From NCBI GenBank assembly GCA_963698415.1, contig CAVOQS010000008.1, positions 197,512 to 261,511 of the forward strand: a stretch of 64,000 nucleotides of DNA, given 5' to 3'. The notes beneath the pieces were generated by a model, which saw only the letters and a program-made list of their open reading frames with translations, searched no databases and was not told the DNA's origin. The position numbers were made by a program, and so were the translations under genes. Source of the DNA: an uncultured Gammaproteobacteria bacterium. GTDB lineage: Bacteria > Pseudomonadota > Gammaproteobacteria > Steroidobacterales > Woeseiaceae. Below, piece after piece: positions 25,911 to 49,215 of this stretch. The stretch's first letter is position 1, and every line of letters starts with the position of its first letter.

Positions 25911-25980
25911 CGTATTGTTGTTCTGGTGATTTAGCCGACGATGGCGGCAATTCTACCCCTTTTTTCCGATTTTTGTGCAA

Positions 25981-26038
25981 CCAATAAGGTACCGGACACC
26001 CTATTTCGGAGGGAATAGGGTGTCCGGTACCCTATTGG
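25981..26038. repeat. REP-like perfect palindrome, family A copy 1
   Basis: GGTACCGGACACCCTATT (25988-26005) and its exact reverse complement (26014-26031) flank an 8-nt loop. Flanks CCAATA/TATTGG extend the stem. It abuts the stop of the TlpA-like gene. Confidence 0.8.
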
Positions 26039-26641
26039 TTAGAGGAGGTCGAAGGCGCCGCGCGCTTCGTCTTTGCTGATCTCGCCCTTGTCGAGGAGGG
26101 TCAGGATGCGAACCACGTCGTCGAGGTGGGACTGGTGCAGTTCGCCAATGTACGCACCCACGTACTCACCGTCTTTCGCCACGAACATCGTGAACGGCAT
26201 GCCGATAAATTCGATCCCGGACGACTCCGCGACTGCCATGGCATCCTGCTGGCCGACCAGCACCGGGTAGTTGAATTGCGCTTCTTCAGCGTAGTTCGCA
26301 ACCTGTTCCGGGTAGTCCACTGCGATGCCGAGTACCTGGTAGTCGTCGTCGCCATGTTCCGCCTGGAAATCTTTCAGGAGCGGAATCTCGCGCCTGCATG
26401 GCGCGCACCAGGTCGCCCAGAAATTCACCAGCCGGTGCTTGCCATCCCATTCGGAGAAATCCCGAGCCACACCTTCAATGTCCGGAAGTGTGAACGCCGG
26501 ATGCGAAACCGCTTCCAGTTGCGCGGGTTGGGGCGGCGCGGGAGGCGCTTCGACTTCGACGGGAATGCGCGCGGCATAAAACAACGCGCCTGCCATCAAG
26601 GCAAGCAGTGCCGTCGCGAAGATCAGCATGACTCGTGACAC
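26039..26641 (-). CDS. TlpA/ResA-family thiol:disulfide oxidoreductase (membrane-anchored thioredoxin-like)
   Basis: 200-aa ORF with an N-terminal TM helix and the WATWCAPCRRE active site. Start is either GTG 26641 or ATG 26629. Confidence 0.7.
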   Translation of the reverse strand: MSRVMLIFATALLALMAGALFYAARIPVEVEAPPAPPQPAQLEAVSHPAFTLPDIEGVARDFSEWDGKHRLVNFWATWCAPCRREIPLLKDFQAEHGDDDYQVLGIAVDYPEQVANYAEEAQFNYPVLVGQQDAMAVAESSGIEFIGMPFTMFVAKDGEYVGAYIGELHQSHLDDVVRILTLLDKGEISKDEARGAFDLL

Positions 26642-34128: not shown

Positions 34129-34162
34129 CCGGGGCGACTAGCCATGGCCGCCCCGGTTTTTT
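34129..34162 (+). terminator. Rho-independent terminator after hsp20
   Basis: CCGGGGCG ... CGCCCCGG stem followed by TTTTTT. Confidence 0.7.
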
Positions 34163-34214
34163 ATTGGGTACCGGACACCCTATTTCCGGAAATAGGGTGT
34201 CCGGTACCTAATAA
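34161..34214. repeat. REP-like perfect palindrome, family A copy 2
   Basis: GGTACCGGACACCCTATT (34167-34184), loop TCCGGA, exact reverse complement (34191-34208). Flanks TTATT/AATAA. It overlaps the last codons and stop of msrQ. Confidence 0.8.
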
Positions 34215-42088: not shown

Positions 42089-44325
42089 CTATTCCCGCAG
42101 CGTCAGTACCTTGAGTTCCGGGTCCGCCAGGATTTCTTCTTCTGTAAACGGGAACTCAATCAACTCACCCCGGGCATACAGTCTGGTCTGATCCGCATAG
42201 TGCGGCGAGTCCGGTTCCGGCGACTGCGAATAGGTCAGCAGCCCACGCGCGTCCAGGTTGCCGTCCTCATCCCAGCCGATAACCTGGATGTAACTGTTGC
42301 CGTGCATGATGGGCGTGTAGCCCTTGCCTTCGGTGAACTGGGTAACGATGTAGCTGAACGATCCGTGGTCCCCAACTGCGCCGGGAACGCCGATACGCTC
42401 GCCATTGCGCTCGGCGAACTGCACGTCACCCCAGCGCGCATCCAGTGCGATGCCGGCATCCGTCAGCTTCTTCTGGGCTGTAGCCAGGGCGCTGAGCATC
42501 GCCTGCCGAACCTCGAGATTGTCGAGTGCGAGGCCGCGAGGCGTGTTTACCGGATAGGCCACATCGAATGGCACGGCGTACAGGTTTGGCAGGCTTTGCA
42601 CCTGCTCCCAGAACTCGGTCCAGACGTGTGTTCCCCGGCTGTCGACATTTGACGTCCGGTCCCACTTTGCCAGCACTTCGCAACTGGCGGCTATCTCGTC
42701 AGCGGGCTGTTCGCAAAGCGTCAGGACCCCTTCGAGAAAGAGTTCCGCGCTAAAGTGCCGATGGCTGAGGAGAATCTGCCGCAAATCGTCAGGTTCGAGT
42801 TTGGCACCGTCCGCGAGTGCTTCGTCGACATACGTCAAGCCGGCACGAGTACGCAGACTTCGTACCGTTCTTTCATCGCCGATAACGGGCGAGTACCCTT
42901 CGAGCCGCCGGTCCGGATTCGACAGCCAGTAGCTGTCATTCGAATTCGTAAAATAGTCGGTGGACGTGGCCCTCGGCATTTTCTCCGGCGGCAGATTTCC
43001 GGGAACAGGGCTGCCCGGTGTCACCTTCCAGTCACAGCCGGGGTCCGAGCCATCCAGGATGACAACCGGCCGGGCATGCCTTCCACTGCCTTGCGACATT
43101 TGCTGATCGTCTCGACGTCGAGATTCGGCGTGGCGGACAGGTCGCCATAGAACGCGTTGCCGTGACGATCAGCGGCAATCGTATTGACAAAGAAAGTCCC
43201 CTGGTGACTGATTGCGGCTTCCACGTCGGCAACCGATTGCGCGGTCTGCAGGGCGAAATAGGTTGGTACCGTCGCGTTGTTATTGACAATAGCGTCGCGG
43301 ATTGCGAACGCCTTTTCTCCGGTCCAGGCGAGCCCTTCACTGGCGATGACCGGACCAAAGTGCGTCATGTAGATGCTGTGTTCTCGCGGCGCCGAATCTT
43401 CACCGGCGCCCGGCACCAGCACGGCCATCTCTTCGATGTCGCGGAACTCATCGCCGTATCGGTATTGCATCGGATTTTCCGGGTTGAGTTCAAGCTCAAA
43501 CAGCGTGAAGCGCGCTGCCGTCGACACCGTGTGGGTCCAGGCAATATCGCGATTGAAACCAATGCCGATGAAGTTGCCGGCTATGAGTCTCGCGCCCATG
43601 ACATCGACGACGCCGGGAATTGTTACGTGAACGATGTGGAATCTGGATGGGCCGTGCCACGGGTAGTGCGGGTTGCCAAGCAGCAAGCCGCGCCCCGAGG
43701 CGGTCAGGCTGCTGCCGACAGCTATTGCGTTACTGCCGATGCCTTGTACCGGCCCCGCATCGAATGCCACCTGCAGAAGGGCTTCACCTGGCGGCGCTGC
43801 CGCTGCCATCTCTTCCTTGAAGAAACCGAGGCCATAACGAATGCCGAAAGCAACCATCATTCGGTCGAGGTCACCGTCCTCGAGCGGTCGCGCCCAAGCC
43901 TGGCCATTGCAGGAAGCGGGCATCTTGCCGGCGTAGTCCTGCAAGTACCGGTTGTATCCAGCCCTGAACCCTTCGTTGTATTCGGCCGCCTCGGCCGGGA
44001 CCGCAGCACGATGATGCGCGAGCCTCTCGTCAGTCAGGATGCTGCGATGAAATACATCGCTCGCAAAGTGCTCGTCGGATGGCCCGAAGTCCGCCGACAG
44101 TGTCCCCTTGGCTGTGGCCAGTTCCTTTGCGAAGACACAAACACCGTCGACCGCGGTTGCATAGGCGAATCCGTAGCCGAGGCTCCCCCAGTCATCCGCG
44201 AGGACATGGGGTATGCCATAGCTCGTCCACCGGATATCGGCGGAGTATTGGTGCTCCGGCTGTCTTTCTGTGCAGGAGGTAAGCAGGGGAATCGCCAGCA
44301 ACGTGGCGATGAGACGACAATTCAT
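42089..44325 (-). pseudogene. Penicillin/AHL-acylase family Ntn hydrolase, split by a frameshift near 43066-43074
   Basis: Lipoprotein N-terminal part (ORF 43021-44364, with nucleophile motif GSNAIAVG) and C-terminal part (ORF 42089-43099, VVILDGSDPGCDW ... NSNDSYWLSNP) overlap in different frames. Together about 745 aa, a normal family length. Confidence 0.8.
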
Positions 44326-44370
44326 AATCACTCCGGATATTCGTGTTTCAGGATGTTGAAGCAAACGGTC

Positions 44371-44914: not shown

Positions 44915-45686
44915 CTAGTTCCTTATGCGAAATCCCTTGAGCAGGCTGCGCATCCAGGGTTGACGGATGACAGGCATCGCAAATCGATACAAGCGCCCGG
45001 ACGTGTACACGGCCTTGCCTTTCTCGAGTGCTGCGAGACCTTCACGAACCACGACGTCTGCGTCGTACCAGATGAAGCGGGGCAGGCCGGCTTTCATGGT
45101 ACTCAGGCGCCTCGGATTGATGAAAATCGGTGTGTGTGAAGCCGGGGCAAAGCGCGAGTACGTGCACACCGTCTTCTCTTACGGTTGCTGACAGCGCCCG
45201 CGACAGGGCAATCAGGTAGGTCTTGGTTGGGCCGTAATTCATATCGCCGGGTACTGTAATTTGCCCGGCGATCGAAGCGACATTGAGAACCCGCCCGAAC
45301 CCACGTTCCTGCATTGCCGGGACAAAGAAATGACACAAGGCCGCGTACGACGTCATCATGAGATCGAGGTGCGCTTTTTGAACCTGCCAGTCGCGCGTCG
45401 TGAGAAGATCGGGTCCGGCTGATCCGGCATTGTTGATAAGAGTGTCGATCTCGAAACCGCGAGCGACGGTCTCGTCGTAAAGCGCCTGCGGCGCGTCTGC
45501 GTCGGATAAATCCGCGGTAATGATGTCCACTTCCACCCCGAACTCGTCATTGAGATTGGTCGCGAGTTTCTCCATCGGTTCGGCCCGGCGTGCGACCAGC
45601 ACGAGGTCTTTTCCACCGGCTGCCAGTTGGCGCGCGAATTCGCTGCCGAGACCTGCCGATGCGCCTGTAATAAGTGCTCTGCCCAT
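44915..45686 (-). pseudogene. SDR-family oxidoreductase, frameshifted near 45095-45125
   Basis: MGRALITGASAGLG ... NNAG ... YGPTK core is in ORF 45042-45752. The C-terminal segment MKAGLPRFIWYDADVVVREGLAALEKGK... is in another frame (ORF 44915-45169). Confidence 0.75.
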
Positions 45687-45714
45687 AATGGGCAGCACTA
45701 TCGCACAATTTCGC

Positions 45715-45743
45715 TTGTTTTTTGGCCGCTGGGCGGCTAATTT
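45715..45743 (+). promoter_or_regulatory. Putative sigma70 promoter of the ileS leader
   Basis: TTGTTT (45715-20), 17-nt spacer, TAATTT (45738-43). It ends about 10 nt before the base of T-box Stem I. Confidence 0.35.
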
Positions 45744-45752
45744 GCCCCGCAA

Positions 45753-46047
45753 GACGCTGATGGGGACGAGTACGCAGCCTGATCAGGCCACAGCGACCGG
45801 AGGATGGTGAGAGCTCCGGGCCCGAAACTGCCGAATATCACCCCGGAGTCGCCAACCGAAAAGCTCAGCTGAGTAAGCCTGGCCGACTGATCCACGATAC
45901 GGATGTCGGGTCGCAAGACCCTTGAGGCGGCCGTTGCCGCGAAGCCGGGTGGTACCGCGATGAATCCTTCGCCCCGGGAATCAGGTACCGGACACCATAT
46001 TTCTTGTTGAATTATGGTGTCCGGTACCTGATTCCCGGGGCGGTTTT
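45753..46047 (+). promoter_or_regulatory. T-box riboswitch leader, AUC (Ile) specifier
   Basis: Stem I spans 45753-45850: K-turn GAC-GCU-GA-UGGGG / CCCCG-GA-GUC, S-turn AGUA / GAA, codon AUC 45837-39 followed by A, AG bulge AGCGA 45792-96, distal loop GGUGAGAG 45806-13. T-box core GGGUGGUACCGCG is at 45947-59. The antiterminator (CCGGG/CCCGG and GCG/CGC around bulge UGGUACC) competes with a 29-31-bp terminator hairpin (45969-46043) followed by UUUUGU. ileS lies downstream. Confidence 0.8.
45984..46028. repeat. REP-like palindrome, family A copy 3 (inside the T-box terminator stem)
   Basis: GGTACCGGACACC at 45984-45996 and its reverse complement at 46016-46028 match the core of copies 1 and 2. 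The outer stem GCCCCGGGAATCA/TGATTCCCGGGGC is locus-specific. Confidence 0.7.
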
Positions 46048-46049
46048 GT

Positions 46050-49000
46050 ATGCAGGAGCTTGAATTGAAATTTAAGGAAGTAACCGGTCGTTACGATGGA
46101 CCAGCCCTCGAGGAAGAGGTGCTGGAATTCTGGCGTGAGCACGATGTCTTCGAGCAGACGCTCGAGCAGACGAAGGGCGGCCCGCAATTCAGTTTCAATG
46201 AGGGCCCGCCGACGGCGAACGGCAAGCCCGGTATCCACCATGTACTGGCACGTTCATTCAAGGACATCTTCCCGCGCTACAAGACCATGCGTGGCTACCA
46301 TGTGCCGCGCAAGGCGGGCTGGGATACACACGGTCTTCCCGTCGAGCACGAAGTCGAAAAACTCCTGAAGAAAGAGGGCAGGATCGAGAGCTACGACAAG
46401 GCGGAAATCGAAGCGAAAGTCGGCATCGCTGAGTTCACGCGACTGTGCCGCGAGTCGGTCATGACCTACGTGGGCGACTGGGAGAAGATGACCGAGCGCA
46501 TGGGCTTCTGGGTTAATCTCGACGAGGCCTACTACACGCTCAACAACACCTATATCGAGTCGGTCTGGAACCTGCTGCAGAGGATCTGGGACGAGGACCT
46601 CATCTACAAGGGTTACAAGGTTGTCCCCTACGATCCACGCATCGGCGCAACCCTGTCTTCGCACGAACTTGCGCTTGGCTACAAGGAAGTCGAAGACCCG
46701 TCGATCACTGTCCGCTTCAAGCTCGCCGACGCCGACGACACTTACTTCCTGGTCTGGACCACGACGCCGTGGACGTTGCCGTCCAACCTCGCACTCGCTG
46801 TTGGCGATGACATCGACTACAGCTACTGCGAATCTGACGGTCAGACACTAATCGTCGCTGAAGCTCTGCGCGCGTCCGTGTTCCGCGATATCGAACACGA
46901 AGTCGTGAAGACCGTGAAAGGCAGAACGCTTGTCGGTATGCGCTACGAGCAGCTGTTCGACTACATCGAGGTGGACGCCGGCAATGCATTCACCGTGATG
47001 TCGGCAGACTTCGTCAGTACCGAAGACGGTACCGGCATCGTGCACACGGCGCCCGGCCTACGGCGTGGACGATCTCGCACTTGGTCAGGCGAACGACCTG
47101 CCAGTCGTGCATGGCGTCGGTCTTGACGGCAACTTCATCGACGATGTCGAGCCCGTCAAAGGACTGTTCTTCAAAGATGCGGACAAGCCGCTGATCCGTA
47201 TCCTCAAGGATCGCGGCATGATGTTCCGTTCGGAGCGCTTCAAGCATAACTACCCGTTCGGCTGGCGCACCGGCGACCCGATTCTCTATTACGCAAAGAA
47301 CGCGTGGTACATCCGCACGTCGAAATTCCGCGAACGCATGGCAGAGTTGAACCAGACGATCAACTGGGTTCCGGATCACATCAAGGATGGTCGCTTCGGC
47401 AACTGGCTCGAGAATAACGTCGACTGGGCATTGTCGCGCGAGCGCTTCTGGGGCACACCACTGCCTGTCTGGACGGACGGCGAGGACGGATTCAAGTGCA
47501 TCGGGTCAGTCGCGGAACTGGAAGGGCTGACGGGCAGGGAGCTCAGCGAGCTGGACCTGCATCGCCCCGCGGTTGACGACGTGACCTTTGAACTCGATGG
47601 CAAAACCTGGCGTCGCGTACCGGAGGTCATCGACTGCTGGTTCGATTCGGGCGCGATGTCTTATGCGCAATGGCACTACCCATTCGAAAACAAGGATAAG
47701 TTCGAGGCGCATTTCCCGGCAGACTTCATTTGCGAAGCGATCGACCAGACGCGAGGTTGGTTCTACACGCTGCACGCAATCTCGACACTCGTCTCGGACA
47801 GCGTGGCCTTCAAAAACTGTATCTGCCTGAACCTTATCGTCGACAAAGACGGCAAGAAGATGTCGAAGTCGGTGGGCAACATCATCAACCCGTACGATGT
47901 GTTCGACACGGTCGGTGCCGACGCGCTGCGCTGGTATTTCCTGGCGCGCCTCGCGCCGGATGCGCCGAAGCGCGTGTCTGTCGACATCGTTGCCGACGTG
48001 GCCAGCTCATTCATCAATACGTTCTGGAACACGTACGGCTTCTTCGTGTTGTATGCGCGTCTCGACGAAATCGACCTGACAAAAGACATTCCGGTCGCAG
48101 ACCGTCCGGAGATCGACCGCTGGGCACTGGCGCTGTTGCACAAGACCATCACCACGGTCACCGAGTCGCTGGATCACTACGACGCAAAGACCGCTGGCGA
48201 GGCCATCGAGTCGTTCGTCGATCAACTGAGTAACTGGTACGTGCGCCGCAACCGTCGCCGCTTCTGGAAGTCGACGGATCCACGGGACAAGCAGGCAGCG
48301 TACCTGACGCTATACGAGTGTCTGAAGGGCGTGCACGAGCTGATGGCGCCGTTCGTGCCATTCCTCGCCGAGAAGGTCTACCAGAACCTGGTTCGCTCAG
48401 TGGACCCGGATGCCTTGCCATCCGTGCACATGGGGAACTGGCCCGAGGCCGACGCCTCCTGGCAGAACGACAATCTGCTCCACGACATCGACGTCGTGCA
48501 GAAAGTCGTTGGCCTGGGTCGCGCGGCTCGCAGTCATTCCGGCGTGCGCACGAGGCAGCCGATTTCGCGCCTCCTGGTGCGCGCGCCCAACGACGCCGCC
48601 GCCAGGGCACTCGAGAGCCACAAGGACCAGATTCTCGAAGAGCTCAACGTCAAAGCGATCGAGTTCATCGCACGCGACGCCGGGCTGGTTAGTTACAACA
48701 TCAAGCCGAACCTGCCCAAGCTCGGCAAGCAGTACGGCAAGCTGATGCCGAAGATTCGGCAGGCACTCGTGGATGCCGATGGCGCCGCGATTGCGAGTGC
48801 CGCGGCCAATGGCGAAGCGTTCGAGATCGAAGTGGCCGGGCAGACAATTCCGCTCGAAGGCGACGATATCCTGATCGAAACGCATTCGGCAGAAGGCTAC
48901 TCCTGCGAGGCGGATTCCGGCTACCTCGCCGCATTGGATACCACGCTCAACGATGAACTCATCGCAGAGGGGCTCGCTCGCGAGATCGTGCGTTCCGTCC

Positions 49001-49215
49001 AGGACGCCCGCAAGCAGGCGGGCCTGGAGGTTTCGGATCGAATCACCCTGGGTGTATCGGGGTCCGAGGCGGTCGAGAATGCGCTCGAAGTGCATCGCGA
49101 CTACGTGATGAACGAGACACTCGCGACGACATGGAAGATCGGCCACCCGAACGCGAGGTTCAGCGCCGACCGGGATCTCGGCGACGATCACTGGAAGATC
49201 GAAATAAGCTTGTGA
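46050..49215 (+). pseudogene. ileS: Isoleucine--tRNA ligase, type 2, interrupted by a 1-nt insertion at about 47055-47056
   Basis: ORFs 46050-47126 and 47065-49215 together are collinear with Thermus-type IleS as recalled (PPTANGKPGIHH, KMSKS). The junction reads HTAP|AYGVDDLA only if one G of GCGCCCGGCCTAC is skipped. An alternative start is TTG 46065, 6 nt after AGGAG. Confidence 0.9.

Follow-up and report, generated by a model that had tools for sequence, protein, structure and literature searches.

The 64-kb stretch of DNA analyzed here (the window) carries, on its plus strand, the type-2 IleRS gene ileS and, upstream of it, a leader with the complete anatomy of a T-box riboswitch. From 5′ to 3′, the leader comprises a Stem I with its K-turn, specifier loop, AG bulge, and distal loop, then Stem II, a Stem IIA/B pseudoknot, an extra hairpin, Stem III, an antiterminator containing the T-box sequence, and an intrinsic terminator (Table 1); its GC content is 64%. 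The neighboring genes are Gram-negative in type, encoding DsbD, an Omp85-family protein, and a CzcA RND pump. An earlier reading of the same DNA, made by eye from the letters (the sequence-only reading), had listed the Stem I motifs, the T-box core, and the antiterminator pairing; on re-reading positions 45500-46300, all of its motif coordinates proved exact, and every one of the Stem I elements that it named can be read off where it had placed them. Four elements absent from its list (Stem II, the IIA/B pseudoknot, the extra hairpin, and Stem III) are all present, and the Rfam alignment itself positions Stem II, Stem IIA, and Stem III.

At the 5′ end, a probable sigma-70 promoter would place the transcription start at about 45748-45751. 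Its hexamers each match the consensus at 3/6 positions, and a consensus promoter scan missed it; at most Woeseiaceae loci, however weak the match here, the pattern CTTGTnTTTT-N17-TA(A/G)TTT recurs at a fixed distance upstream of Stem I. At the 3′ end, the proteins of relatives align from residue 6 of the open reading frame that begins with the ATG at 46050, and their starts read M-x-F-K-E-V; the start codon of ileS is likely the TTG at 46065, which the sequence-only reading had overlooked.

Table 1. Features of the leader and of ileS, in window coordinates.
Feature	Position	Strand	Detail or basis
Probable sigma-70 promoter	45715..45743	+	-35 TTGTTT 45715-20, 17-nt spacer, -10 TAATTT 45738-43; conserved spacing to Stem I
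T-box leader, Stem I to antiterminator	45748..45979	+	Rfam RF00230
Stem I	45753..45851	+	Covariation in alignment A1; clade model R1
K-turn and base helix	45753-65 vs 45841-50	+	GACGCUGAUGGGG vs CCCCGGAGUC; read from sequence
Stem I K-turn	45759-60 vs 45845-47	+	GA vs GGA
Specifier loop	45769-72; 45833-40	+	AGUA (5′ side); GAA-U-AUC-A (3′ side), GAA at 45833-35
Specifier	45837-39	+	AUC, followed by purine A 45840
AG bulge of Stem I	45792-96	+	AGCGA
Distal loop of Stem I	45806-13	+	GGUGAGAG
Stem II	45851..45883	+	S-turn-like internal loop GAA...AGUA; Rfam alignment and relatives' folds
Stem IIA/B pseudoknot	45884..45904	+	IIB covariation
IIA helix	45884-85 x 45895-96	+	CG x CG
IIB helix	45890-93 x 45901-04	+	Loop AUCC x GGAU
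Extra variable hairpin	45908..45921	+	GGGUCGCAAGACCC, between IIA/B and Stem III; folds here and in most relatives
Stem III	45927..45940	+	GCGGC-CGUU-GCCGC; -9.4 kcal/mol, z = -3.0
T-box sequence and antiterminator	45942..45977	+	7-nt bulge UGGUACC 45950-56
T-box core	45947-59	+	GGGUGGUACCGCG, exact
Antiterminator helices	45945-49 x 45973-77; 45957-59 x 45970-72	+	CCGGG x CCCGG; GCG x CGC
Intrinsic terminator	45970..46049	+	Hairpin, then GUUUUGU; arms 45970-46003 / 46009-46042
REP-like palindrome	45978..46034	.	Core GGTACCGGACACC.TAT, nested in terminator hairpin apex
Shine-Dalgarno and probable ileS start	46054..46067	+	AGGAG 46054-58; TTG 46065-67
Type-2 ileS	46065..49215	+	TIGR00392 match, relatives

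Rfam match and comparative support

Searching the whole 64-kb window on both strands against 4227 families, we obtained a single Rfam match with an E-value below 1e-3, to the T-box leader family RF00230: 86.1 bits over model positions 1-219 of 219, that is, at full length, with an E-value of 2.8e-17 (2.1e-19 on a 471-nt stretch around the leader). The curated gathering cut-off of this family is 93 bits, 7 bits above the window leader, and a gathering-mode Rfam scan of the window accordingly returned no match; that empty result stems from the 86.1-bit score lying under the cut-off and does not indicate absence. The covariance-model search that the sequence-only reading had proposed as a check on its T-box assignment thus gives a significant match, albeit one below the gathering score. 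The same holds for related leaders. Among the eight gammaproteobacterial leaders that we scored, which range from 55 to 104 bits, only two (L025 at 103.8 and L021 at 99.4 bits) exceed the cut-off, and six (the window leader, L004, L016, L015, L034, and L001) fall below it. Some gammaproteobacterial members of the class are probably already tagged in databases, and most are not; the practical lesson is that annotation at the default Rfam threshold misses six out of eight scored leaders.

Relatives were collected by scanning species-representative genomes with the repaired N-terminal half of the IleRS (the repair is described below). The same leader stands 5′ of ileS at 28 of the 30 gammaproteobacterial loci for which upstream sequence was available, with the T-box core about 70-120 nt upstream of the gene. 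We aligned Stem I, which is 98-102 nt long throughout, from 29 gammaproteobacterial leaders (alignment A1). RNAalifold recovers the canonical Stem I from these 29 sequences, 94.8% of the cells at paired positions are indeed paired (31-50% in slid controls), 18 of the 22 Stem I pairs show compensatory changes, and none of 500 shuffles attained values as high as those observed. A covariance model of Stem I built from A1 (R1) scores the window Stem I at 110 bits; applied to 81 sources, it matches 63 of them, with exactly one match per locus. The leader thus recurs upstream of ileS in related genomes, for which the sequence-only reading had proposed to search, and Stem I covaries strongly; a lack of covariation in support of Stem I and the antiterminator was among the outcomes that, by that reading, would count against it.

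The comparison also identifies the codon that is read. All 63 leaders have the form GAA-N-AUC-N, and because AUC is invariant while the base preceding it may be U, C, G, or A, the specifier is AUC (Ile), as the sequence-only reading had proposed. Reading the specifier one base earlier, as UAU (Tyr), is ruled out by the same pattern, the first U being variable. Invariance extends to the K-turn (residues GA and GAG) and, in the 29 aligned leaders, to the core residues AGCGA and GUG..AG of the platform.

Support extends to the modules between Stem I and the antiterminator. Stem II assumes the same folded shape in every relative, and its basal helix covaries (GCCA/UGGC, GCUG/CAGC, AUCAC/GUGAU). 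The IIB helix, whose partner segment lies four or five bases downstream of the IIA loop, occurs among relatives as ATCC/GGAT, GTCC/GGAC, GCTC/GAGC, ACCC/GGGT, GCCC/GGGC, TGATCT/AGATCA, and TGGCCG/CGGCCG. Stem III covaries too, a hairpin of differing sequence occupying its position in 29/29 leaders, and the extra hairpin preceding it is missing from L016-L019 and L025. Folding of the single sequence is far less informative: relative to shuffles, neither Stem I (z = +0.9) nor the antiterminator (z = -0.6) is significantly stable, and Stem I is not recovered when the leader is folded in its entirety by minimum free energy. Because these z-scores are no better than those of shuffled sequence, the support for Stem I and the antiterminator is comparative and not thermodynamic. 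The window leader shows every sequence and structure feature by which we judged T-box membership; it is a real, complete T-box of a known class and no chance match, so that the identification made in the sequence-only reading holds, on the strength of the RF00230 match together with the comparative evidence.

Two observations on variation within the family deserve mention. In about one-third of Woeseiaceae leaders, the AGUA of the 5′ specifier-loop strand (A1 columns 16-20) is replaced by AACA, AAUA, or AAAA (L001, L007, L009, L010, L015-L018, L020, L025, and L027), L007 additionally having CAA in place of GAA; such variants occur in most leaders that score low with Rfam, and a degenerate S-turn may be tolerated in Woeseiaceae leaders. 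Separately, no T-box was found upstream of type-2 ileS in L026 (an Acidiferrobacteraceae MAG), L029 (a gammaproteobacterial chromosome, OZ244833.1), or L033 (an Eremiobacterota MAG): Some branches adjoining those that bear the leader have either lost it or never had it.

Antiterminator, terminator, and the proposed mechanism

The antiterminator, folded alone, adopts the structure (((((.......((((........))))))))) at -11.8 kcal/mol, and 26/29 leaders form the same shape with its 7-nt bulge, most of them with a free energy of about -10 to -14 kcal/mol. Its helices are almost invariant and hence provide no covariation evidence of their own. The UGGU of the bulge, which the sequence-only reading had pointed out, is present here and invariant across leaders.

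The competing structure is a terminator hairpin with arms of 34 nt that are 97% complementary, folding at -70.5 kcal/mol (z = -13.7) and followed by UUUUGU at 46044-49. Its 5′ arm begins with CGCCCCGG, which is also the 3′ strand of the antiterminator, so that the two structures are mutually exclusive; folding both alternatives bears out the competition, and the shared strand and U-run, that the sequence-only reading had described. Among relatives, a hairpin CGCCCCGG...CCGGGGCG followed by a U-run occurs in 28/29, with an upper stem that varies freely and free energies of about -14 to -66 kcal/mol. The exceptional cases are L016, in which the hairpin is weak (-14.2 kcal/mol), and L034, in which the stem is followed by a short interrupted T-run. 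A consensus terminator scan missed the terminator of the window, which probably lies outside the stem and loop sizes that the scan allows.

The great length of this hairpin, noted in the sequence-only reading, is real, but a palindrome nested in it had been overlooked: The apex is formed by a member of a REP-like family with core GGTACCGGACACC(C/A)TAT and arms of about 27 nt, of which the 64-kb window holds three copies, all intergenic (25979-26040, 34161-34214, and 45978-46034). We considered whether the very long terminator might represent an unusual switch and ruled this out, as, apart from the REP-like palindrome that its loop contains, the terminator is of the standard kind. The terminator of L005 holds the same REP-like element; the long palindromes found there in L001, L003, L006, and L012 are unrelated to it, and the terminators of the remaining relatives are short. 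From these sequences, species-specific palindromes appear to insert preferentially into the terminator loop.

Taking these features together, we consider it very probable that the locus is a canonical full-length transcriptional T-box for tRNA-Ile(GAU), controlling type-2 ileS in a Woeseiaceae gammaproteobacterium. Its anatomy, covariation, conservation across a bacterial family, and agreement between specifier and gene are established here, and it is almost certainly functional as an Ile T-box; tRNA binding and antitermination are inferred. In the mechanism that we propose, transcription would start near 45750 from a weak sigma-70 promoter, and Stem I would capture tRNA-Ile by pairing of AUC with the anticodon GAU, the elbow of the tRNA docking on the platform that the AG bulge and distal loop make up. 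The 3′ ACCA of an uncharged tRNA would then pair with the UGGU bulge and stabilize the weak antiterminator, permitting readthrough into ileS; if the tRNA is charged, CGCCCCGG would instead enter the much stronger terminator, and transcription would stop at the U-run, before the Shine-Dalgarno sequence and start codon.

Because the UGGU of the bulge is invariant, the cognate tRNA is predicted to carry A73, which is the discriminator of bacterial tRNA-Ile. A tRNA search found no tRNA genes in the 64-kb window. The sole tRNA with a GAU anticodon in the related loci (L034:3654-3725; RF00005, 67.7 bits) is atypical, with a C discriminator; it lies in a Steroidobacteraceae MAG, 1.3 kb upstream of the T-box and ileS, and has A1-U72, G3-U70, and no encoded CCA. 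Judging from these residues, it is no canonical tRNA-Ile, and it would mismatch the UGGU bulge.

The leader might alternatively act on translation, as in Actinobacteria, with tRNA binding freeing a sequestered Shine-Dalgarno sequence and no control of termination. T-boxes of ileS outside Firmicutes are often translational (TBDB preprint), and the interrupted T-run of L034 would suit such a switch. In the window, however, the terminator precedes both the Shine-Dalgarno sequence and the start codon, the former lying wholly outside the hairpin, the GC-rich hairpin precedes a U-run in all but one of the 29 leaders, and Stem I is full length with a distal platform, as opposed to the truncated actinobacterial type; we therefore regard translational control as highly improbable here.

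The downstream gene and the probable origin of the leader

The sequence-only reading had named ileS as the downstream gene, and this agrees both with the specifier and with profile searches: Once a frameshift is repaired, the protein matches TIGR00392 (ileS; cut-off 621) at 925 bits, and its C-terminal domain is DUF5915 (PF19302). By these sequence features, it is a type-2 (eukaryote-like) IleRS. Similarity to MupA and MupB extends over the full length, at 814 and 810 bits, and because these scores are far under the cut-offs of 1900, the window IleRS is no mupirocin-resistance allele.

In the assembly, ileS is broken into two open reading frames (46050-47126 and 47065-49215) by one extra C, GCGCC[C]GGCC at 47052-54, which had escaped the sequence-only reading. 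The extra base is absent from all 14 relatives aligned over the site, ileS is uninterrupted at all related loci, and both halves in the window are otherwise intact. A penicillin-amidase/PvdQ-like gene about 4 kb away on the minus strand (42089-44364) likewise switches frame, at 43068-43074. Both breaks fall within the heptamer CCCGGCC (for the amidase, on the other strand), which occurs at 20 sites in the window; the two frameshifted genes are those noticed in the window and do not come from a systematic search. Because they share a heptamer and the relatives are intact, we read both breaks as systematic assembly indels. The pattern suggests that assembly indels arise systematically at a homopolymer or methylation motif, and the extra C in ileS is, on this comparison, almost certainly an assembly error; that it marks a pseudogene or a recoding site is unlikely, given its absence from the 14 relatives and the shared heptamer.

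These data bear on whether the leader could be a decaying relic that was brought in with a transferred gene, no longer regulates, and here fronts a pseudogene. Such a reading could draw on the frameshift in the assembled ileS, on the loss of the leader from two gammaproteobacterial relatives (L026 and L029), and on the degenerate S-turn, AACA for AGUA, of some relatives. Yet every helix is maintained by compensatory changes among species whose IleRS are only 65-90% identical, AUC and UGGU are invariant, and the frameshift is a single C in the heptamer of the only other frameshift seen, which points to the assembly, in a gene whose halves are otherwise sound and whose relatives are all intact. 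We accordingly judge decay even less probable than translational control.

As to the host, the ileS loci closest to that of the window (65-90% amino acid identity) belong to MAGs titled Woeseiaceae, Gammaproteobacteria, Chromatiales, and Steroidobacteraceae, and two closed chromosomes (OZ245060.1 and OX638346.1) are among them; the order ileS, small open reading frame, cyclase-like gene, and M49 peptidase gene is kept across Woeseiaceae loci. The gammaproteobacterial host and synteny proposed in the sequence-only reading are thus substantiated by the nearest loci and by a downstream gene order common to the clade. The next tier of IleRS (51-57% identity) is mainly from Chloroflexota, with some Actinomycetota and Zixibacteria, and an AUC Stem I lies upstream of ileS at 34 of 46 non-gammaproteobacterial loci. 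In a rough, distance-based NJ tree of IleRS sampled from the 80 best matches, the gammaproteobacterial sequences form a monophyletic clade whose sister is the Eremiobacterota sequence (L033) that lacks a T-box, both standing beside the Chloroflexota radiation. At six Caldilineaceae loci (L041, L044, L046, L049, L051, and L053), the AUC T-box and the ileS downstream of it are about 940-1170 nt apart; the interval probably holds another gene, which would imply T-box control of an operon.

The NJ tree and the distribution of leaders lend support to joint horizontal acquisition, as the sequence-only reading had suggested: The leader and type-2 ileS were probably acquired together from a Chloroflexi-like donor. 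A single transfer followed by vertical inheritance in Woeseiaceae, with occasional loss of the leader, would fit both tree and distribution. A fuller scenario, which we hold to be an even call, is that the T-box has been kept by selection throughout Woeseiaceae and Steroidobacteraceae-like relatives, having arrived as a single cassette with type-2 ileS from a Chloroflexi-like donor, and that the incoming gene may have displaced a native type-1 enzyme. Although Chloroflexota are indeed the closest relatives with a T-box beyond the clade, an assembly or binning artefact that fused Chloroflexi DNA with a gammaproteobacterial contig has a negligible probability: More than 25 independent assemblies, the two closed chromosomes included, carry the leader-ileS pair in a syntenic gammaproteobacterial setting, the terminator contains a REP-like element that is specific to the genome and recurs elsewhere in the window, and ileS, with a GC3 of 0.79, is close to its neighbors (0.62-0.81).

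Comparison with known T-box systems

The presence of this leader in a gammaproteobacterium is at odds with the reported range of the class. T-boxes were found in 2 of 125 Proteobacteria, both times as deltaproteobacterial leuA leaders (Wels 2008, PMC2494555), and have been called restricted to Gram-positive bacteria (PMC7270179), in agreement with the rarity in Proteobacteria to which the sequence-only reading had drawn attention; occurrences outside the core phyla have been ascribed to horizontal transfer (TBDB). Our literature search yielded no paper in which Woeseia, or any of the Gammaproteobacteria, is tied to a T-box. Marine sediment is a habitat in which Woeseiaceae abound. If our reading is correct, theirs would be the first T-box lineage to be described from Gammaproteobacteria, tRNA-directed antitermination would work with the gammaproteobacterial transcription apparatus, and most members of the lineage would be invisible to annotation at the Rfam threshold.

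The leuA T-boxes of Geobacter and Pelobacter are the only proteobacterial precedent in the literature examined, and presumably were also acquired horizontally (PMC2494555); they differ in having a Leu specifier, in preceding a biosynthetic gene, and in belonging to another class of Proteobacteria. The SAM-I(Xcc) leader of Xanthomonas (PMC7270179) is, like that of the window, gammaproteobacterial and senses uncharged tRNA. It is, however, no T-box: Both the specifier loop and the T-box sequence are lacking, and it does not read the anticodon.

In Actinobacteria, the IleRS under T-box control is presumably also of type 2. The translational ileS T-boxes of that phylum (TBDB, PMC7778990, and preprint) share with the window leader the effector tRNA and the regulated gene, but have a truncated Stem I, a specifier in the terminal loop, and a sequestered Shine-Dalgarno sequence, in place of the complete Stem I and intrinsic terminator seen here. 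The class-I T-boxes of Firmicutes, such as those of S. aureus and B. subtilis ileS (Grundy et al. 1997, as cited in PMC2494555), have the same modules, logic, and amino acid. Relative to these, the window leader resides in a Gram-negative host, is GC-rich, controls a type-2 and not a type-1 IleRS, and includes an extra hairpin before Stem III and a REP-like palindrome in the terminator.

The closest counterparts are the Chloroflexota ileS T-boxes (Dehalococcoides, Wels 2008, PMC2494555; Anaerolineae and Caldilineae loci L035-L080), whose IleRS are, besides L033, the nearest relatives outside the gammaproteobacterial clade. Chloroflexota leaders and the window have in common a full-length Stem I with GAA-N-AUC, AGCGA, and a GGUG(A/C)GAG distal loop, a UGGUACC bulge, and type-2 ileS downstream. 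They differ in Rfam score (99-108 bits in Chloroflexota, with one at 72, against the 55-104 bits of gammaproteobacterial leaders), in the helix below the specifier (GGAG/CUCC or GGAA/UUCC against GGGG/CCCC), and in the base after AUC (usually C against A); several Chloroflexota, moreover, have an extra gene between leader and ileS. The mechanism is thus already known, and what is new is the taxonomic range of a well-known class: The Woeseiaceae T-box, which is family-wide, covarying, and linked to ileS, extends that class to Gammaproteobacteria, and would offer a clean case of a riboswitch traveling with its gene across phyla and being inherited vertically thereafter.
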